Source: Vicinamibacterales bacterium (GTDB lineage Bacteria > Acidobacteriota > Vicinamibacteria > Vicinamibacterales > SCN-69-37). Taken from it: a stretch of 64,000 nt of DNA. Below are positions 4,093 through 16,722 of this stretch, in pieces; the stretch's first letter is position 1; each line of letters begins with the position of its first letter. The translations under genes and the position numbers were made by a program. The notes below the pieces were generated by a model that saw only the letters and a list, made by a program, of their open reading frames with translations, ran no database searches and was not told the DNA's origin. The stretch spans positions 6,913 through 70,912 of the forward strand of contig JBBDWL010000129.1 in assembly GCA_040902895.1 (NCBI GenBank). Reading direction: 5' to 3'.

Positions 4093-7053
4093 ATGTACCG
4101 TCGCCGATCTTCGCGCGCCACCGCGTTACTCGTGGCCTTTGCGTTCTTTGTCTCTGTACCCGTGGCAGGCGTCGCCCAGCAGCGCGCCGTCGCGACGAAG
4201 AAGCCGCTCACCTACGACACCTACGACTATTGGCGCTCCATCGCCGGCACAGAGCTCTCGCGCGACGGCAACTGGCTGGCGTACGCGCTCACATCCGAAG
4301 CCGAAGACAGCGAGCTGATCGTCGTCAACCTTGGCACGAAGCAGCAGTTCAAGCAGGCCAGAGGCACCGACCCGTCGTTCACGCCGGATGGCAAGTTCGT
4401 GGTGTTCACACTGCAGGCGCCAAAGGCCGACGTCGAGAAAGCGCGCAAGGCGAACACACGTGACGAGGACATGCCGAAGAACGGCGCCGGTGTGATGTCG
4501 CTGTCCGACGGCAAGGTCACGCTCGTCGAAAAAGTCGGAACCGTCCGCATGCCGGCCGAGTCTTCGGCATGGGTTGCCTTCCATCGCCCGCGCGCGGCTG
4601 CGGCCGGGCGCGGCGGACGCCAGGGCGGCGGACGTCGGGGTGGCGGCGCGCCGGAACCGGCCCCACAGACAGCACCGCCGGGCCAGACACCGCCAGCTGC
4701 AGGCGAACCACAGACTGAAGCGGCGCGTCCCGGCGAGCCACGTGAGAAGCGCAAGGACGCCGGCGTCGATCTGATCGTCCGCAATCTCACCACGGGCGAA
4801 GAGTTCACCATTCCCCTGGTCAGCGAGTTCGCCTGGTCGCGTGACGGCGCGTATCTCGCCTACGCCGTGTCATCCGCGAAGGCCGAGGAGGATGGCGCGT
4901 TCGTGCGCACGATGAACGGCGGCGCCGTCACGAAGCTGCATGCCGGAAAAGGCAATTACAAGAGTTTCGCGTTCGACGAGGCCGGCAAGCAGCTCGCGTT
5001 CCTGAGCGATCAGGCCGAGTACGAGAAAGAAGTTGCGCCGTACCGTCTTTATTACTGGATGGCAGCGGATGCCGCCGCGACGGAGCTCGTGTCGGCCGCG
5101 ACGCCTGGCATGCCTGCCGGGATGGTTGTCAGCGATCAGGGCGCGCCGCGCTTCACGGAAGATGGACAGCGGCTGACGCTCGGTACGGCGCCGCCTCCGC
5201 CGGCGCCGCGCGCGCCGGATGCGACGGGGCCGATCGCGGTCGACCTGTGGCATTACAAGGATCCACTGCTGCAGCCGATGCAGCGGGTGCGCGCGACGCA
5301 GGAGCGCAATCGCAACTACCGCGCGGTCGTGCATCTGGCCGACAAGCGGTTCGTGCAGCTTGCCACGCCGGAGCTGCCGAACGTCACCGTCGATCAGTAC
5401 GATCCCGCACGCGCGCTCGGCACGTCCGACGTCCCGTACCGCCAGGAGATCTCCTGGGATCAGACCTACAACGACATCTATCTGGTTGATGTCAGGACCG
5501 GCCAGCGGCAGCAAGCACTCACTCGCGCGGGATCGAACGCGTCACGCTCGCCGGATGGCAAGTACCTGCTGTATCTCGATCGCGAAAAGGGACACTGGTT
5601 TACGCATCGCGTCGCCGATGGCGCGAGTGTCAATCTCACGGAGAAGCTGCCGGTCAAGTTCGTGCAGGAGGACCACGATACGCCGAATCTGCCAGGCGCG
5701 TACGGCACCGGAGGGTGGACGGCGAACGACGCTTCCGTGCTCGTGTACGACCAATTCGACATCTGGGAGGTCAAGCCTGACGGCACGGGCGCGCGGATGA
5801 TCACCAACGGCGAAGGACGGAAACGAGGTCTGGCGTTTCGATACCGTTCGCTCGATCCGGAGCAGCGTGCGGTGCCGACTGACAAGCCGATGCTGCTGTC
5901 GGCGATGGACGATCGCACCAAGGCGACCGGCTTCTATCGGGTGCCGTTCAACGGCTCCACGCCGCCCGCGAAGCTCGTGATGCTCGACAAGGCGTTCGGC
6001 GCGCCTATCAAGGCGCGCAACGCCGATCGCCTCGTGTTCACGCTGTCGCGCTTCGAGGAGTTTCCCGACCTGTGGGTGAGCGACACGAGCTTCTCGAAGA
6101 TGGAGCGGCTCTCGAACGCCAACCCGCAGCAGGAGGAGTACAACTGGGGCAAGGCGGAGCTGATCGACTACATCAATGCCGACGGCAAGAAGCTGCGCTC
6201 GATCCTGATCAAGCCGGATGACTTCGATCCGTCGAAGAAGTATCCGATGATGGTCTATATCTACGAGCAGCTCGCCGACGGCCTGCACTCGTACCGCCGG
6301 CCCGGCCCCGGCACGAGCGTGACGGTCACGCGGTACGTCAGCAACGGCTATGTCGTGCTGCTGCCCGACATCGTCTACGGTACCGGCTACCCCGGCGAAG
6401 CGGCGGAGAAGTGCGTCATTCCCGCGGTCAACACCGTGCTGGCCATGAACTTCGTCGATCCGACGCGCGTCGGCATTCAGGGCCACTCATGGGGCGGCTA
6501 TCAGATCACGCACCTGATCACGCGCACCAACATCTTCCGCGCGGTGCAGGCGGGCGCGTCGGTGACGAACATGATCAGCGCGTACGGCGGCATCCGCTGG
6601 GGCAGCGGCATGTCGCGCGCGTTCCAGTACGAGAGGACCCAGAGCCGCATCGGCGCGCCGCCGTGGGACGCCCCGCTGCAGTTCATCGAGAACTCGCCGA
6701 TCTTCTGGGTCGAGAAGGTGCAGACGCCGTACCTCACCATCCACAACGATGCCGACGATGCGGTGCCGTGGTATCAGGCGATCGAGTTCTTCTCGGCACT
6801 GCGCCGGCTGGGGAAGGAAGCGTACTTCTTCAACTACAACACGGAGCTGCACGGCCTGCGCAACCGCGACAACATGAAGCACTGGACCGTGCATCAGGAC
6901 GAGTTCTTCGATCACTTCCTGAAGGACGCGCCGAAGCCGGAGTGGATGGAGAAGGGCGTGCCGTATCTCGAGCGCGGCACCAGGGACGTGTCGCACCTGT
7001 TCAAGCGGAAGACGGCGGCCGAGACGACGCAGAATGGGAAGACGAAAGACTGA
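4093..7053 (+). CDS. S9 prolyl-oligopeptidase family serine peptidase with N-terminal beta-propeller region
   Basis: 986 aa with signal peptide MYRRRSSRATALLVAFAFFVSVPVAGVAQQ. The C-terminal alpha/beta hydrolase domain has the nucleophile motif GIQGHSWGGY, then HNDADDAVP and ELHG. The N-terminal half has TolB/DPP-IV-like repeats (SPDGKYL, TPDGKFV). Confidence 0.9.
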   Translation: MYRRRSSRATALLVAFAFFVSVPVAGVAQQRAVATKKPLTYDTYDYWRSIAGTELSRDGNWLAYALTSEAEDSELIVVNLGTKQQFKQARGTDPSFTPDGKFVVFTLQAPKADVEKARKANTRDEDMPKNGAGVMSLSDGKVTLVEKVGTVRMPAESSAWVAFHRPRAAAAGRGGRQGGGRRGGGAPEPAPQTAPPGQTPPAAGEPQTEAARPGEPREKRKDAGVDLIVRNLTTGEEFTIPLVSEFAWSRDGAYLAYAVSSAKAEEDGAFVRTMNGGAVTKLHAGKGNYKSFAFDEAGKQLAFLSDQAEYEKEVAPYRLYYWMAADAAATELVSAATPGMPAGMVVSDQGAPRFTEDGQRLTLGTAPPPPAPRAPDATGPIAVDLWHYKDPLLQPMQRVRATQERNRNYRAVVHLADKRFVQLATPELPNVTVDQYDPARALGTSDVPYRQEISWDQTYNDIYLVDVRTGQRQQALTRAGSNASRSPDGKYLLYLDREKGHWFTHRVADGASVNLTEKLPVKFVQEDHDTPNLPGAYGTGGWTANDASVLVYDQFDIWEVKPDGTGARMITNGEGRKRGLAFRYRSLDPEQRAVPTDKPMLLSAMDDRTKATGFYRVPFNGSTPPAKLVMLDKAFGAPIKARNADRLVFTLSRFEEFPDLWVSDTSFSKMERLSNANPQQEEYNWGKAELIDYINADGKKLRSILIKPDDFDPSKKYPMMVYIYEQLADGLHSYRRPGPGTSVTVTRYVSNGYVVLLPDIVYGTGYPGEAAEKCVIPAVNTVLAMNFVDPTRVGIQGHSWGGYQITHLITRTNIFRAVQAGASVTNMISAYGGIRWGSGMSRAFQYERTQSRIGAPPWDAPLQFIENSPIFWVEKVQTPYLTIHNDADDAVPWYQAIEFFSALRRLGKEAYFFNYNTELHGLRNRDNMKHWTVHQDEFFDHFLKDAPKPEWMEKGVPYLERGTRDVSHLFKRKTAAETTQNGKTKD

Positions 7054-7088
7054 AGACGAAAGAAATTGAGACGCGTCGCATTTTCTGA

Positions 7089-7116
7089 TTGACCGACTAA
7101 TTTGGTCGGATATAGG
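7089..7116 (+). promoter_or_regulatory. Candidate sigma70-type promoter (TTGACC-16 nt-TATAGG) upstream of the TonB-dependent receptor
   Basis: TTGACC at 7089-7094 and TATAGG at 7111-7116. The spacer contains the small hairpin CCGAC-N7-GTCGG. A GAGGGA Shine-Dalgarno sequence precedes the ATG at 7160. Pattern match only. Confidence 0.3.
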
Positions 7117-7159
7117 ATCCCTTGCTAGTTGAGACTTTTCTCAGTTAGCGAGGGATTCC

Positions 7160-9598
7160 ATGTTTCGTTCGAGTGTGTGGTGCGTGCTTCTTTTCACGTT
7201 TTTCGGTTTCAGCCAGGCTCAGGCGCAAACAGCCGGCCTTGCGGGACGCGTGGTTTCGCAGGCCGGGGCACCGGTGCCCGGCGCACAGGTCACCGTTCAG
7301 GCCATCCCGGGCGCACCTTCGATCGTCCTTGCAGACCCCAATGGCCGATTTGCCCTCACGGCGCTGGCACCCGGCGAGTATCGGATTAGCGCACGGGCCA
7401 TCGGCTTTTCACCCGTCACCGAACGAGTGACGGTCGGAGCCGCTCAGCCGTCCGATGTCACGCTGGTCCTGCCCGAAATCGTGCGCGAGCGCGTCGACGT
7501 CGTCGGGCACGCGAGCCTGCGGGCGCGGATTCCGGGTTCAGCCTGGGTGATCGACCGCCATGAGATGGAGAAGCTGACTGCCGCCACGGGCGACATCCAT
7601 CGGATGCTGCGGCAGGTGCCGGGGCTGAACATTCAGGAAGAAGAGGGGTACGGCCTGCGCCCGAATATCGGCATGCGCGGCTCCGGCACCGACCGCAGCA
7701 GCAAGATCACGATGATGGAAGACGGCGTGCTGATCGCACCGGCGCCGTACTCGGCGCCGGCGGCGTACTACTCGCCAACGGCCGGCCGGATGGAGTCACT
7801 CGAAGTGCGCAAGGGATCGAGCCAAATCAAGTACGGGCCGATCACCACCGGAGGCGTGCTGAATTACGTCTCGACGAGCATACCGTCGGGACTGCAGCTT
7901 CGCGGAACCGTGACGGGGGGCACGCACGGCACGGGGAAAATCACGGCGGGCGCCGGCGATTCCTATCGCACCTTCGGCTGGCTCGTCGAGACCTTCCAGT
8001 TGCGCACCGATGGCTTCAAGGAGCTCGACGGCGGCGGCAACACGGGCGTCGAACTGGCCGACTACCTGGCGAAGGTGCGGTTCAACACCACACCCAGCGA
8101 CACCTTCTACCAGGAGCTTGAAATCAAGCTTGGCCGAACCGAGCAGACGGGCGATGAGACGTACCTCGGCCTGACGGATGCCGACTTTTCCGCGACGCCG
8201 CTCCGCCGGTACGCCGCCTCGCAGGAGGACGTCATCGAGACGACGCACGAGCAGTATCAGGCGCGTCACTTCCTCGCGCGGCCCAACTGGGACCTGACGA
8301 CCACCGCCTATCGCAACGACTTCTCGCGGGCGTGGTACAAGCTGCAGAGCGTGCTCGGCGCAGGATTGGCCGGCGTGCTCAGCGCGCCCGACCGCAACGC
8401 AGAACGCATGGCCGCGCTCACCGGCGGCGACAGTGCTGCGAATGCGCTGGTCATCCGAAATAACAATCGCGGTTACTACAGCGCGGGCGTTCAGTCGGTG
8501 CTGGGCTTCTCGCTGTCGGCCGGCGCGCTCCGGCATCAGGTTGAAGCCGGCGTTCGTTATCACAACGACGAGGAGGATCGCTTCCAGCAGGACGATGGGT
8601 ACCAGACGCTGGAGGGGCGAATGATCCTGACCCGGGCCGGCGCTCCGGGCAGCCAGGAGAATCGCGTTGTCGGCGCGAGCGCCGTCGCCGGATTTGTCTC
8701 GGACACAATCACGTGGGGCCGGTGGAGCGTCTCGCCCGGCCTTCGCTACGAGAACATCACGCTGGACCAGACGACGTACGCCTCCACTGATCCTGCGCGG
8801 AGCGGCTCCACAACGGATGTAAGAACCGAGGTCGATGCCGTCATCCCCGGCATCGGGTTCAGCTACGACCTTCGCCCCGGCGCGAGCCTCTTCTGCGGCG
8901 TGCACAAGGGATTCGCCCCGCCGGGACCGGGCGCGGCGGAAGGCACCGCGGTTGAACACAGCGTCAACTACGAGTTCGGCACGCGCGTCCGGCGCGCTGC
9001 TGTGAGCACCGAGGTCATCGGGTTCTTCAACAACTACGGCAATCTCCTGGGGCGTGACACGCTGGCGACCGGCGGCAGCGGCGACGGCGCGCTGTTCAAC
9101 GGTGGCAAGGCCCAGGTGTACGGCCTCGAGGCGGCGTTCCAGTGGAATCCGGCCCCGGCGCTGGGGCTCGCGTCCGCGCTGCCCATCCGCCTGGCGTACA
9201 CCTTCACCCACGCGGAGTTCCGGAACAGTTTTCAGAGCCGGTTCGGGCCCTGGGGCAACGTCGGCATTGGCGACGAGCTCCCGTACGTGCCGCGGCATCA
9301 GCTGTACGCGAGCATCGAAACGGATCATGAGAGATGGCAGACGAGGCTCGAAGGGGTGTACGTCGGCCGGATGCGCACGCTGGCGGGGCAGGGCGCGCAT
9401 GTGCCCGGCGATTCCACGGACGCGCACCTTGTCCTGAACGTGTCGGGGGAATACGAGCTCACCAACGGCGCGTCGCTGTTTGCGAGCGTGCAGAATCTCG
9501 CCGACAGCTCCTACATCGTTGCCAGGCATCCCGCAGGCGTTCGACCGGGGCTGCCTCGTTCGTTCCAGGCAGGTCTCAGGATCGGCCTGACCCGATGA
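7160..9598 (+). CDS. TonB-dependent receptor with N-terminal carboxypeptidase-regulatory-like domain
   Basis: 812 aa. It has a signal peptide and a CarboxypepD_reg-like segment (LAGRVVSQAGAPVPGAQVTV...GRFALTALAPGEYRISA). The plug domain reads RMLRQVPGLNIQEEEGYGLRPNIGMRGSG...MEDGVLIAPAPYS, followed by a long beta-barrel. Confidence 0.9.
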   Translation: MFRSSVWCVLLFTFFGFSQAQAQTAGLAGRVVSQAGAPVPGAQVTVQAIPGAPSIVLADPNGRFALTALAPGEYRISARAIGFSPVTERVTVGAAQPSDVTLVLPEIVRERVDVVGHASLRARIPGSAWVIDRHEMEKLTAATGDIHRMLRQVPGLNIQEEEGYGLRPNIGMRGSGTDRSSKITMMEDGVLIAPAPYSAPAAYYSPTAGRMESLEVRKGSSQIKYGPITTGGVLNYVSTSIPSGLQLRGTVTGGTHGTGKITAGAGDSYRTFGWLVETFQLRTDGFKELDGGGNTGVELADYLAKVRFNTTPSDTFYQELEIKLGRTEQTGDETYLGLTDADFSATPLRRYAASQEDVIETTHEQYQARHFLARPNWDLTTTAYRNDFSRAWYKLQSVLGAGLAGVLSAPDRNAERMAALTGGDSAANALVIRNNNRGYYSAGVQSVLGFSLSAGALRHQVEAGVRYHNDEEDRFQQDDGYQTLEGRMILTRAGAPGSQENRVVGASAVAGFVSDTITWGRWSVSPGLRYENITLDQTTYASTDPARSGSTTDVRTEVDAVIPGIGFSYDLRPGASLFCGVHKGFAPPGPGAAEGTAVEHSVNYEFGTRVRRAAVSTEVIGFFNNYGNLLGRDTLATGGSGDGALFNGGKAQVYGLEAAFQWNPAPALGLASALPIRLAYTFTHAEFRNSFQSRFGPWGNVGIGDELPYVPRHQLYASIETDHERWQTRLEGVYVGRMRTLAGQGAHVPGDSTDAHLVLNVSGEYELTNGASLFASVQNLADSSYIVARHPAGVRPGLPRSFQAGLRIGLTR

Positions 9599-10404: not shown

Positions 10405-12441
10405 TCAGAAGATCCAGTGTTCGAGTCCGACCACTGTACCGGCAGTCAAGGCCCAGCGGCGATCGAGCAATCCGCGCGCGAGATCGATTCGGAACGAGGG
10501 GCCGCCGCCGAGCAGACGTATGCGAACTCCTGCTCCCGCGTCGATCTGTCCATCCGATGCGCGTCCATCGATCAACCGCCATGCGCGCGCGGCATCCGTA
10601 AAGAGCGCGGCGTCGATTGATGCGAGGGGCATTCGCAGCACCGGACGCGACCATTCGACGGTGCCATGGATCAGGCGCTGGCCGATGATGCGGCCGTCAC
10701 CGGCGCCGATCGCGCCGTCCCGAATCAATGGATGCGCCCGAAGCAGCGGCCGGCGCGTGTGGCCGTCACCCGCACCGGGCAGTAGAAACAGCGGCGCGGC
10801 GTCACCGACTCTTTCGGCGCCCGCGGCAATCGTCAGGCGGCCGCCGATAGCCTGAAATCCGGCGCGCGCGCGCCCGCTGAATCGCGAAAGGCCTGCGCGC
10901 CGTGTCCACCGTTCTGCTGTCAGATGTCCATAGACGGTGTTGCTGACGGCAAAGAGGATGCGCGCGGCGCCATAGACTTTGTCGTCACGCGCGCCCCCCG
11001 CGGCGAACGGCCATCGATCGAATGCCGCGCCGGCCGCCCAGCCGAGAGATGGCGTGATCCAGTCAACCGCCTGAAACCCGCCGCGGCGCCAGCGAGGAAT
11101 GGTCAGCGCGTCTCCAACCTCGTAGGTTTCACGCGCATCGAATCCACTCAACTTCCAGACGGCGCCGAACGGCAGCGGCGCAGGCGTTTCGACGGCCGCC
11201 GTGATCCGCTCGAACCCTTCACGGAAGCGCCACGAGCCGGTCACCCGTTCGCCGCCGCCAACCGGGTTCGTGAAAGCCACATCCACTTCACGCGTGAACG
11301 GCGCCTCTGCCGCCGTCATCACGAGATCGACTGCACCAGGCCTGCGCGAGCGCTCTACAATCGCTGCGTCAAGCTGCACACGCCCATCGGCAAGCGGCGT
11401 GTAGCTCACGCGGCTGGCCGAGGAAGACGGCAACAGCGCGAGCCGCCGCCGCGCGCGCCCAAGCCTTGCGGCCGACAGACGATCGCCGGGCCGAAGATCG
11501 ATCAGCCGCTCCGCCGCGCGGTATCGCGTCCGCTCGAGTCCCGCAATCTGGACTGTGTCGACATCCGGCTTGCCCGCGCGATTCCACGCCTCGAGCGCCT
11601 CGACGTCGCGATCCATGACGAACAGGGTCGTGCCAAGGGCGTCCCAGGCGACGGCGTTCGCCGGGTCAGCGGTCGTGGCGTCGGTCGCCAGTCGAAGCGC
11701 CTCTGCACGGTCGCCGGAGTGGAGCAGGGTTGCAACGCGAGTCGCCAGAACAGGTTCCATGGGTTCCACAGGTTCCTTTGGTTCCCCGGGTTCGGTTCTG
11801 GTTCCTGGTTCAACAGGTTCCACAGGTTCGCTCGCCGGGAGCAGCAGCAGCATCCAGAAATTCGCAGTTGCCCATCGTCGATCGAATTCCGTGCGCGGCA
11901 TCGCCTGCGACGGCGCGGCTGCGGGGTCATGGAAGTGCACGCGGTCGCGATCGAGCGCCGTGATAACGACGTAGTGATAGCGCGATGGACGGTCTTCGAT
12001 CAGCGCCACGATCGGGCGGCCGCGCGACAGGTGTTGCGCAACCGGCGCTGCGTCGCCGGCACGGCCGCGAAGCGGGAAGGCCTGCCATTTCCGCCGGCGC
12101 AGATCCGCGACAAGCGCCGTCGTGACGATGCCGCCCTGAGCTTGATCGATCAGCGGCGCGAAATCCTCCGCGCGCGCGAGCGGATCGCCCCAGTACCGCA
12201 TGACCATCGCAGCCGCCGCCCCCCCGCACAGCGCTTCCGTCTGCGGCAGGTAGGGCACGGCCCGCGGCAGCGCAATGCTCTGCGCCGAAGCGACCGACAC
12301 CAGCGCGGCGAAAATAAGGGTTGGCACGGAAACGGCGCGCTCGTTCGGCCGCGACGGCCGGATCGAGCGCGCCAGAGTATGACGCCGCGCTATGCGACGA
12401 TGACGAGGATGATGATCAGCAACGCGATGATGATCAGCCAC
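10405..12441 (-). CDS. Outer-membrane protein fusing C39-like (PA2778-like) cysteine peptidase, TPR, POTRA and an Omp85/ShlB-type beta-barrel
   Basis: 678-aa ORF. C39-like region: LPQTEALCGGAAAAMVMRYWG (Cys) and SRYHYVVITALDRDRVHFHDP (His). The linker is (EPx)n, followed by a TPR-like helix pair. The POTRA-like segment reads VDTVQIAGLERTRYRAAERLIDLRPGDRLSAARLGRARRRLALLPSSSASRVSYTPLADGRVQLDAAIVE. About 330 aa of alternating beta pattern end in the OMP signature ..GLEHWIF. The start is uncertain: the ATG at 12441 overlaps the upstream gene by 52 nt, and the signal-like segment VPTLIFAALVSVASAQS begins near 12330. Confidence 0.75.
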   Translation of the reverse strand: MADHHRVADHHPRHRRIARRHTLARSIRPSRPNERAVSVPTLIFAALVSVASAQSIALPRAVPYLPQTEALCGGAAAAMVMRYWGDPLARAEDFAPLIDQAQGGIVTTALVADLRRRKWQAFPLRGRAGDAAPVAQHLSRGRPIVALIEDRPSRYHYVVITALDRDRVHFHDPAAAPSQAMPRTEFDRRWATANFWMLLLLPASEPVEPVEPGTRTEPGEPKEPVEPMEPVLATRVATLLHSGDRAEALRLATDATTADPANAVAWDALGTTLFVMDRDVEALEAWNRAGKPDVDTVQIAGLERTRYRAAERLIDLRPGDRLSAARLGRARRRLALLPSSSASRVSYTPLADGRVQLDAAIVERSRRPGAVDLVMTAAEAPFTREVDVAFTNPVGGGERVTGSWRFREGFERITAAVETPAPLPFGAVWKLSGFDARETYEVGDALTIPRWRRGGFQAVDWITPSLGWAAGAAFDRWPFAAGGARDDKVYGAARILFAVSNTVYGHLTAERWTRRAGLSRFSGRARAGFQAIGGRLTIAAGAERVGDAAPLFLLPGAGDGHTRRPLLRAHPLIRDGAIGAGDGRIIGQRLIHGTVEWSRPVLRMPLASIDAALFTDAARAWRLIDGRASDGQIDAGAGVRIRLLGGGPSFRIDLARGLLDRRWALTAGTVVGLEHWIF
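11753..11830 (-). repeat. 9-bp tandem repeat (GGTTCCNNN on the + strand) encoding an (E-P-x)n linker
   Basis: GGTTCCATG GGTTCCACA GGTTCCTTT GGTTCCCCG GGTTCGGTTCT GGTTCCT GGTTCAACA GGTTCCACA GGTTCG. On the - strand this translates as EPVEPVEPGTRTEPGEPKEPVEPMEPV, between the peptidase and TPR parts. Confidence 0.8.
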
Positions 12442-12776
12442 ACCGACAGCGTGATGGTTTGGCCGCCCGCAAGCGCGTCAGTCACCTGCTGCGCCTGAGC
12501 CGCAACCTGCGCGAGCTCCGCGCCGTCGAGTGTGCCAACGGCCGCGGCCGCTCTGTCGATCGGGAGGCCGGCCTCTTTGGCGACCTTCCGCACGTCATCC
12601 CGCTGAAGCACATTCAGAATGGCCTGTCGATCGGCCTGCTTCTTTGCAGCATGCTCTGCCGCGATTGCCGTGAGGCTCTGCGAGCCCGCGGTCTGTCCCG
12701 ATTGTGCAGATGTCAGCGAGGGCGCCAGCATCACCGCGAGAAGAATCATCACTACCGTTCCACGAACTTTGCGCAT
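12390..12776 (-). CDS. Small secreted/anchored protein, PA2779-family-like (signal peptide, helical region, GG motif, C-terminal hydrophobic helix)
   Basis: The start is set at MRKVRGTVVMILLAVMLAPSLTSAQS and is preceded by GGAGG 7 nt upstream. The upstream part of ORF 12390..12959 overlaps the zwf 3' end. The protein ends ..QVTDALAGGQTITLSVWLIIIALLIIILVIVA. The family name comes from my memory of the PA2778/PA2779 gene pair and has not been searched. Confidence 0.7.
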   Translation of the reverse strand: MRKVRGTVVMILLAVMLAPSLTSAQSGQTAGSQSLTAIAAEHAAKKQADRQAILNVLQRDDVRKVAKEAGLPIDRAAAAVGTLDGAELAQVAAQAQQVTDALAGGQTITLSVWLIIIALLIIILVIVA

Positions 12777-16635: not shown

Positions 16636-16722
16636 TGGTGCGGAAGAGAGGACTCGAACCTCCACCCGGTTGCCCGGACTAGCTCCTGAGGCTAGCGCGT
16701 CTGCCAATTCCGCCACTTCCGC
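16636..16722 (-). tRNA. tRNA-Leu (anticodon CAG), class II with long variable arm, CCA encoded
   Basis: Reverse complement: GCGGAAGTGGCGGAATTGGCAGACGCGCTAGCCTCAGGAGCTAGTCCGGGCAACCGGGTGGAGGTTCGAGTCCTCTCTTCCGCACCA. The acceptor stem GCGGAAG/CTTCCGC pairs. The anticodon stem is CTAGC/GCTAG with loop CTCAGGA. The T-arm is GGTTCGAGTCC. Confidence 0.9.

Follow-up and report, generated by a model that had tools for sequence, protein, structure and literature searches.

A C39 peptidase–TPR–POTRA–Omp85 fusion protein and its small Gly-Gly partner: a candidate two-gene processing module of Vicinamibacteria

In this study, we revisited a first-pass annotation, made from the sequence alone, of a 64,000-nucleotide stretch of DNA from a soil acidobacterium of the Vicinamibacterales (the window, whose numbering is used throughout), in which two tandem open reading frames (ORFs) are found on the minus strand, just where that annotation had placed them. 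The small upstream gene encodes a PA2779-family protein with a Gly-Gly (GG) immediately before a C-terminal hydrophobic helix. The large downstream gene encodes, in one chain, a C39-type cysteine peptidase with intact catalytic residues, a disordered linker, tetratricopeptide (TPR) repeats and, according to the predicted structure, a POTRA-like domain and an Omp85-type β-barrel. Partnership of the two genes is obligate in the loci that we compared, and the GG is invariant in the alignment of the small protein. The reading that we favour, at somewhat better than an even chance, is that the two genes form a self-contained module of Vicinamibacteria in which a C39 protease, anchored in the outer membrane (OM) and facing the periplasm, cuts its small partner after the GG. 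The finding itself is far beyond chance, since the E-values run from 1e-10 to 1e-14 and the pair is present in 80 of 80 loci. The earlier interpretation, of an OM-embedded protease or translocon that clips the small protein at the GG site, is partly supported. The features on which the argument turns are listed here, with residues of the large protein counted in its annotated form of 640 aa and structural elements taken, where so marked, from AlphaFold2 (AF2) models.

10405..12327, minus strand: large gene, 640 aa plus stop (ORF), C39–TPR–POTRA–Omp85 fusion
12277..12327, minus strand: predicted signal peptide of the large protein, residues 1–17, VPTLIFAALVSVASAQS (sequence; AF2 helix 2–13)
11839..12258, minus strand: C39-type papain-fold cysteine peptidase, residues 24–163 (PF13529, PF03412, AF2 α/β domain)
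12241–12243, 12226–12228, 11974–11976 and 11926–11928, minus strand: catalytic-site codons of Q29, Cys34, His118 and Asp134, respectively (alignment)
11755..11838, minus strand: disordered Pro/Glu-rich linker with 8 EPx triplets, residues 164–191 (predicted local distance difference test, pLDDT, <50 at 171–190)
11578..11754, minus strand: two TPR repeats of four helices, residues 192–250 (AF2 helices 192–203, 207–220, 225–237 and 241–250)
11353..11565, minus strand: predicted POTRA-like domain, β-α-α-β-β, residues 255–325 (AF2 strand 255–262, helices 269–276 and 286–296, strands 302–311 and 317–325)
10408..11289, minus strand: predicted Omp85-type β-barrel, residues 347–640, ending W-I-F (AF2 strands; Foldseek)
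10690..10806, minus strand: long loop between strands 11 and 12, residues 508–546, at the position of Omp85 loop L6 (AF2 strand order)
12390..12776, minus strand: small gene, 128 aa plus stop (ORF and translation), PA2779-family/DUF6627 protein
12705..12776, minus strand: predicted Sec signal peptide of the small protein, residues 1–24, MRKVRGTVVMILLAVMLAPSLTSA (sequence; AF2 helix 3–17)
12468..12704, minus strand: predicted helical periplasmic domain, residues 25–103 (AF2 helices 33–57, 60–69, 73–80 and 85–103)
12462..12467, minus strand: Gly104-Gly105, candidate cleavage site, where G105 would be the last residue before the cut (alignment)
12393..12461, minus strand: C-terminal hydrophobic helix, residues 106–128, QTITLSVWLIIIALLIIILVIVA (AF2 helix 110–127)

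The C39-like domain recognized in the first pass is borne out by profile searches, in which Peptidase_C39_2 (PF13529) scores 41 bits against a cut-off of 24 and Peptidase_C39 (PF03412) 23.2 bits against a cut-off of 22, and both models match all 60 of the homologues aligned. Throughout these homologues, at 36–69% identity, Q29, C34, H118 and D134 are invariant. These residues align with Q11, C17, H96 and D112 of Streptococcus pneumoniae ComA, of which C17 and H96 have been shown by mutagenesis to be catalytic (PMC10630487), and the family profile matches the ComA peptidase domain at an E-value of 4e-5. C39 peptidases cleave following GG or GA, behind an amphipathic leader (PMC5557850; PMC10630487). 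The motifs quoted at the first pass, LCGGAAAAMVMRYWG, YHYVVITALDRDRVHFHDP and the C-terminal GLEHWIF, are all present in the large protein. The signal peptides of both proteins were read by eye from the sequence, and homologues of the large protein have similar hydrophobic N-terminal leaders. Among NCBIfam models the best match of the large protein is C39_PA2778_fam (NF033920), with 50.4 bits against a cut-off of 150 (42–81 bits for nine relatives). As the score is below the cut-off and the alignment, over model positions 4–156 of 255, takes in the peptidase domain alone, we place the large protein, although it is homologous to PA2778-type peptidases, outside the PA2778 equivalog family; some 390 further residues, those of the POTRA-like domain and the barrel, lie outside the 255-position model. 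NCBIfam models of ABC exporters reach 10–12 bits, solely over residues 62–191 of the maximal ORF of 678 aa, that is, over the peptidase domain. No match to patatin or ShlB was found in a Pfam scan of the large protein.

The small protein proved to be 128 aa long on translation, one residue shorter than first counted, and is identical to an NCBI protein (P0121) named 'PA2779 family protein'. It is a member of that family by both curated cut-offs, each time by a narrow margin (NF033919, PA2779_fam, 41.5 bits against 40; DUF6627, PF20332, 28.9 bits against 27). Proteins of the PA2779 family we take to be of about 125 aa, with a signal peptide and with a gene beside that of a C39-type peptidase, a description that the small protein fits. 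The initial designation of the two genes as a PA2778/PA2779-like pair consequently holds for the small partner and not for the large one, which fails the NF033920 cut-off. In an alignment (A2) of 40 homologues, down to 33% identity, the basic n-region, hydrophobic core and small-x-small motif of the leader are conserved, and to judge from this sequence the leader is likely to be cut after TSA.

G104-G105 is invariant in all 40 of these homologues, and a GG is found in 211 of 214 unique C-termini, as the first-pass interpretation requires; the remainder consists of a GA variant, a truncated sequence and a false match. The GA belongs to the small protein of locus L042 (5478–5888, plus strand; ..SLAGAQDRIVISATT..) and is the sole substitution among the 214. 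A conserved amphipathic helix, residues 85–103, directly precedes the GG and has a conserved hydrophobic face of L at −18, V, A or L at −15, A at −11, V at −8 and L at −4; Leu occupies position −4 in 200 of the 211 sequences and the small residue Ala position −3 in 188. In the AF2 model, for which the pLDDT is only 64, the GG sits in an exposed, non-helical break (104–109) between this helix and the helix 110–127, and a Foldseek search with the model returned no relative, nothing falling below E = 2. The protein ends ..DALAGG followed by the 23-aa tail. Nowhere is the small protein more conserved than in this Ile/Leu-rich tail (majority-residue frequency 0.75), which measures 22–27 aa in nearly all homologues, has no basic cluster and ends in VA, VAVD or IAD. 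No other ORF in the 64-kb window has a GG followed by a hydrophobic C-terminal tail.

The fusion is not confined to the window. A homology search with the large protein gave 982 significant matches, and the best 120 of these measure 617–711 aa at about 90% query coverage, with the exception of a 384-aa fragment (P0036). A HMMER scan with the N-terminal 255 residues found 192 representatives of 50%-identity clusters at E≤1e-30, and the best 150 of these matches are mostly 640–740 aa long and mostly full-length fused proteins. Matches of 250–320 aa to the N-terminal domain were considered as unfused PA2778-like relatives and rejected, since those inspected turned out to be fragments of fused proteins, left by truncation or a frameshift. 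Relatives of the large protein are encoded in 376 stretches of species-representative genomes; the locus counts given here refer to the best 80 of them. Seventy-five of these carry the label Acidobacteriota, Vicinamibacterales or Vicinamibacteria. The other five (L011, L014, L042, L062 and L078) are metagenome-assembled genomes (MAGs) labelled Bifidobacteriaceae (two), Rhodothermales, Betaproteobacteria or Gemmatimonadota; these labels are probably binning errors, as an Omp85 protein would be out of place in a Gram-positive bin, which speaks for mis-binning and not for transfer.

The expectation that the small protein would prove a conserved neighbour was borne out throughout, in that each of the 80 loci has a PA2779-like ORF next to the large gene and on its strand. 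This ORF is upstream and intact in 75, downstream in four and upstream but frameshifted in one (L019); the usual order, small gene first, is also the one implied for P. aeruginosa by the gene numbering and orientation of PA2779 and PA2778. In L019 a single ORF (5323–7959, plus strand) joins the small and large frames, and we rejected it as a natural (Rosetta-stone) fusion because translation places the frameshift close to where the small gene ends, and the sequence is that of a long-read MAG. Behind two small proteins of more distant relationship, too, there are genes for fused peptidases, which measure 672 and 729 aa. The search with the A2 profile of the PA2779-like proteins listed close relatives only, with no Pseudomonas-type pair among the matches listed, and a search of a plasmid collection gave one weak, unrelated C39 match. 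When the ORFs of the 80 loci were clustered all against all, the only clusters present in more than 26 loci were the pair and antisense shadows of the large gene. A LytS/LytTR system, a response-regulator–SpoIIE phosphatase, a T2SSE-type ATPase and a MacB/FtsX permease each occur in 15–26 loci and none is universal, and the neighbours in the window, zwf, gnd and dut, are common to the three closest relatives only. The flanking genes are thus unconserved, and we therefore regard the pair as the unit.

The AF2 model of the large protein, built on the 60 homologues, has a pLDDT of 88.9 and a predicted template modelling score (pTM) of 0.82. It places barrel strands, 15 clear and one broken, at residues 347–632 with high pLDDT, and a short helix (332–345) between the POTRA-like unit and the barrel. 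In a Foldseek comparison with the PDB, TamA and BamA came out on top at E-values of 1.3e-14 to 1e-9 over 418–490 columns spanning POTRA and barrel; the TamA structure 8us3 gave the value of 1.3e-14, and the barrel-only TamA structure 8us4 a target TM-score (TMt) of 0.63. The family sequence profile also reaches TamA (E 2.7e-4) and Bacteroides BamA (E 1e-3). The Pfam Omp85 model (PF01103) scores 16.3 bits in the window protein, under its cut-off of 24, and matches 16 of the 60 homologues at E≤0.01 (best 4.2e-7), with the Omp85-model region at residues 538–618 retained in the family; the POTRA models of Pfam gave no match in a hidden Markov model (HMM) scan of the large protein. The POTRA and Omp85 calls of the first-pass annotation are hence upheld by the predicted fold and not by the HMM searches, and they lean on predicted structure because PF01103 is sub-threshold and no POTRA model matched. 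In the clade of the window the chain terminates in W-I-F, as is typical of barrels. Conservation along the large protein peaks (0.69) in the loop at the L6 position, which has the motif LLRAHPL; R530, A531 and H532 never vary there, and L529, P533 and L534 are conserved to 90% or more. The L6 motif of Omp85 proteins is, we presume, of the (V/I)RG(Y/F) type, and the loop here carries LLRAHPL instead.

The TPR-like segment seen at the outset was recovered both as four AF2 helices and by the profile of the 60 homologues, which matches consensus TPR proteins at E-values down to 1e-72; the TPR models of Pfam match 24–34 of the 60 members and are sub-threshold in the window protein. With TPR repeats beside a predicted POTRA-like domain and Omp85-type barrel, the chain resembles BamA–BamD, in layout only, and an analogous layout has been considered for WD40–Omp85 proteins as a 'BamA–BamB fusion' (PMC4104836). 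In most homologues at 36–40% identity (e.g. P0037–P0120) a conserved Cys closes the linker and another follows some 30 residues on, in the first TPR helices; the TPR region of these homologues is also longer (93 alignment columns against 59 residues in the window protein). This Cys pair is likely to form a periplasmic disulfide. In the clade of the window the catalytic Cys34 is the only Cys, with no counterpart of the pair within 11578–11838. The linker, with eight EPx triplets and not the nine first counted, is 28 aa long in the window protein and 13–42 aa (median 27) in homologues, where its sequence is not conserved. A TonB-like rigid (EP)n spacer as a trait of the family was rejected, because the EPx repeat is confined to the clade of the window and the other linkers are unrelated in sequence.

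According to the model that we favour, the large protein would be exported by the Sec pathway and then inserted into the OM through its predicted C-terminal 16-stranded barrel, so that the POTRA-like domain, the TPR repeats and the active peptidase would be kept on the periplasmic side, as in the patatin–Omp85 fusion PlpD. POTRA domains are periplasmic, and an oxidising compartment would suit the Cys pair that most homologues have in their TPR region. PlpD is the only experimentally studied enzyme–POTRA–Omp85 fusion, and its enzyme domain is not secreted but is held in the periplasm on the Omp85 scaffold, packed near the POTRA domain (PMC11116518). As judged from the predicted fold, the window protein shares with PlpD and FplA (formerly 'type Vd') a signal peptide, a hydrolytic enzyme, a single POTRA and a 16-stranded BamA/TamA-type barrel. 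It differs from them in that the enzyme is a C39 cysteine peptidase and not a patatin lipase, that a disordered linker and TPR repeats lie between enzyme and POTRA, and that a dedicated partner gene adjoins. The small protein would also be exported by Sec, lose its signal peptide and stay anchored by its C-terminal hydrophobic helix. Its amphipathic helix, which ends in L-A-G-G and is similar to a double-glycine leader, might then bind to the peptidase, probably with the TPR repeats as exosite, and a cut by Cys34 after Gly105 would yield an 81-aa helical fragment (residues 25–105) and the 23-aa hydrophobic tail. That a C39 peptidase can operate in this compartment is illustrated by FapD, which is Sec-exported and periplasmic and requires its catalytic Cys (PMC5557850).

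Several observations weigh against this model. The GG lies about five residues from a helix that is expected in the inner membrane, and the protease would be tied to the OM by a linker that measures 13–14 aa in close relatives. The register of hydrophobic positions ahead of the GG (−4, −8, −11, −15 and −18) departs from the classical pattern of double-glycine leaders, which we take to be −4, −7, −12 and −15. A barrel that did no more than anchor the protein would not call for the strong conservation of the L6-like loop. The assignment of barrel and POTRA, including closure of the barrel and the packing of the domains, depends on a predicted structure. For members of the family and for the Pseudomonas proteins PA2778 and PA2779, the literature gave incidental mentions and no experimental study was found. 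One such mention, a hint at a type VI secretion toxin/immunity function for PA2778 (bioRxiv 10.1101/733030), was set aside, as it concerns a small gene downstream of PA2778 and not PA2779.

The foremost alternative, which we consider unlikely, is that cleavage is coupled to export. The C39 domain would remove the membrane tail at the GG, and POTRA and barrel would either export the 81-aa fragment or insert the hydrophobic peptide into the OM, in which case the pair would be the OM counterpart of the peptidase-containing ABC exporters (PCATs) or a minimal two-partner secretion system. The PCATs (ComA, PCAT1, CvaB) are likewise built with a peptidase N-terminal to a membrane transport module and share with the large protein aligned catalytic Cys and His residues, and the GG of their substrates, too, lies behind an amphipathic helix in which position −4 is hydrophobic. 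However, the membrane module here would be an OM Omp85 barrel and not an inner-membrane ABC exporter, the enzyme would be Sec-exported and not cytoplasmic, and the candidate substrate has a Sec signal peptide as well as, after the GG, a 23-aa hydrophobic helix in place of a bacteriocin or pheromone. In the functional amyloid system of Pseudomonas, cleavage by FapD, through its Cys, is needed for secretion via the OM β-barrel of FapF (PMC5557850); yet FapD and FapF are two separate proteins, FapF is a trimeric 12-stranded barrel and not an Omp85 protein, and there is no PA2779-like partner. The Omp85 relatives FhaC and TpsB translocate partner proteins (PMC4104836), and the TpsB/TpsA (FhaC/FHA) systems resemble the present pair in that a POTRA-bearing 16-strand barrel is encoded beside a single dedicated partner. 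The predicted barrel is, however, of the BamA/TamA type and nearest to those two proteins rather than to FhaC, with one POTRA and not two and no ShlB or TPS-domain match, and the partner is a helical protein of 128 aa without a TPS domain, while protease and TPR repeats are built into the large protein.

Export would account for the strong conservation of the LLRAHPL loop and the retention of the Omp85-model region at 538–618, and a small protein handed over to the TPR repeats and POTRA would solve the problem of reach between the two membranes. On the other hand, the barrels of BamA and TamA are closed outward (PMC4104836), the enzyme domain of PlpD is not exported (PMC11116518), and any extracellular product is hypothetical. 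Moreover, the 255 positions of NF033920 span the peptidase and TPR regions only, which suggests that a barrel is dispensable to the classical PA2778 proteins. We lean towards a barrel that positions the enzyme, although, given its strongly conserved L6-like loop, it may also take part in handling a product.

We think it improbable that the small protein is no substrate at all but an inner-membrane binding partner, tether or regulator, for example a trans-envelope bridge via the TPR repeats, with the GG as a structural hinge and the peptidase directed at other proteins. Strict pairing and a conserved helical domain would be expected equally of a binding partner, the GG does coincide with a helix break ahead of the membrane helix, and the problem of reach vanishes if binding suffices. 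Against this, an invariant GG with a conserved Leu at −4 and a small residue at −3, beside a GG-type peptidase that invariably looks active, is hard to explain as a hinge; the sole substitution found, GA, is an accepted C39 cleavage motif (PMC5557850); and with its 80 aa or so the ectodomain is short for a bridge across the periplasm.

A sortase-like transfer, in which a Cys34–Gly105 thioester would be resolved by an amine or hydroxyl of the envelope (lipid, peptidoglycan or protein) instead of water, and the helical domain thereby relocated from its inner-membrane anchor to the OM side, appears still less probable. Cysteine peptidases proceed through an acyl-enzyme intermediate, and the enzyme would be stationed at the OM. 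The layout of the small protein is that of C-terminal sorting signals such as GlyGly-CTERM, which is handled by rhombosortase and with which it shares a signal peptide, a domain, a Gly-Gly, a C-terminal transmembrane helix and a dedicated enzyme (PMC3237569; PMC6219818). However, no GlyGly-CTERM model matches at E≤1, the basic cluster that marks typical sorting signals is missing from the tail, the enzyme is no intramembrane rhomboid but a cysteine peptidase of soluble fold, attached to a predicted OM barrel, and one enzyme is paired here with one substrate, whereas known sorting systems are many-to-one. We also know of no C39 peptidase that carries out transpeptidation. The least probable reading, an autotransporter of type Vd style whose C39 passenger is moved to the surface or released while the small protein acts as a periplasmic chaperone or inhibitor, has in its favour the defining layout of signal peptide, enzyme, linker, one POTRA and 16-strand barrel (PMC4104836) and the 28-aa Pro/Glu-rich linker of the window protein, but that model has been overturned for PlpD, whose enzyme domain is periplasmic (PMC11116518), linkers in relatives are as short as 13 aa with a folded TPR domain between linker and POTRA, and the obvious GG substrate is periplasmic or inner-membrane anchored.

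The pair would represent a new Omp85 domain architecture and a barrel-fused form of a PA2778/PA2779-type pair; it is not categorically new, and both proteins have already been deposited in public databases, with generic names. A census of 2014 distinguished ten Omp85/TpsB subfamilies (BamA, TamA, BamA-like, Lipo, WD40, patatin, Metallo, noNterm, FhaC and Hmw1B), with no mention of a peptidase-C39 or TPR fusion (PMC4104836), and full-text searches of the literature for PA2778, PA2779, DUF6627 and Omp85 with C39 found no study of such a fusion. The first-pass annotation was accordingly right to call the barrel fusion unusual, although in the clade of Vicinamibacteria, where the family is widespread, it is the rule. 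Omp85 proteins are core machines for building and crossing outer membranes, and the role of their non-canonical members is an open question that has been sharpened since PlpD was shown in 2024 not to be a secretion system (PMC11116518). The pair offers a tractable case, with an Omp85-type barrel, a protease of known specificity type and a small obligate partner that has an invariant candidate site, and a result would give the first functional handle on PA2778/PA2779-type pairs, which are so far names in NCBI annotation. Should site-specific proteolysis be physically joined to an Omp85 machine, with a fragment translocated or a peptide inserted at the OM, a doubtful prospect in our estimate, this would constitute an eleventh, mechanistically distinct Omp85/TpsB branch whose dedicated substrate is encoded next door.

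As to the gene model, the large protein is 100% identical to an NCBI protein of 640 aa from a Vicinamibacterales MAG (P0001, 'C39 family peptidase'), which starts at a GTG at 12327 with the N-terminus MPTLIFAALVSVASAQS; given this start, the gap between the two genes is 62 nt. The length of 678 aa reported initially is correct for the maximal ORF (10405–12441) and differs from that of the annotated protein. Ahead of the annotated GTG there are 38 open codons (12327–12441, minus strand), and the upstream GTG overlaps the last 52 nt of the small gene; the extension would give the protein a very basic, His/Arg-rich N-terminus. The start at 12327 seems preferable because the leaders of homologues are short and ordinary.

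Upstream of the pair and on the same strand are the housekeeping genes zwf and a gnd-like gene. Past the 3' end of the large gene, at lower coordinates, a dUTPase gene, a TonB-dependent receptor and an S9 peptidase lie on the plus strand. The G+C content is about 65% across the whole window, scans for promoters and terminators around the pair gave nothing exceeding shuffled controls, and the defence-system models of PADLOC gave nothing meaningful. Among related loci, the MacB/FtsX permease is found near the pair in 26 and the T2SSE-type ATPase upstream in 21, and sub-clades have a convergent LytS-like histidine kinase with a LytTR response regulator, and the response-regulator–SpoIIE phosphatase downstream (examples of such neighbours are L038:7937–11292 and about 15–22 other loci, L027:3–1865, L032:4254–5447 and L082:1462–3897). 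The TonB-dependent receptor of the window (7160–9598, plus strand), which has an N-terminal carboxypeptidase-regulatory-like domain, stands beside the pair in none of the 80 related loci. The S9 protein (4093–7053, plus strand) is a member of the prolyl-oligopeptidase family with 986 aa and PD40 repeats, and has a low-complexity insert rich in Gly, Arg, Pro and Ala near residues 165–215 (..RGGRQGGGRRGGGAPEPAPQTAPPGQTPPAAGEPQTEAARPGEPRE..). The sole match at an Rfam gathering threshold in the window is a tRNA-Leu (CAG) at 16636–16722 on the minus strand, flanked by genes for an FMN reductase and an SppA (S49) peptidase.

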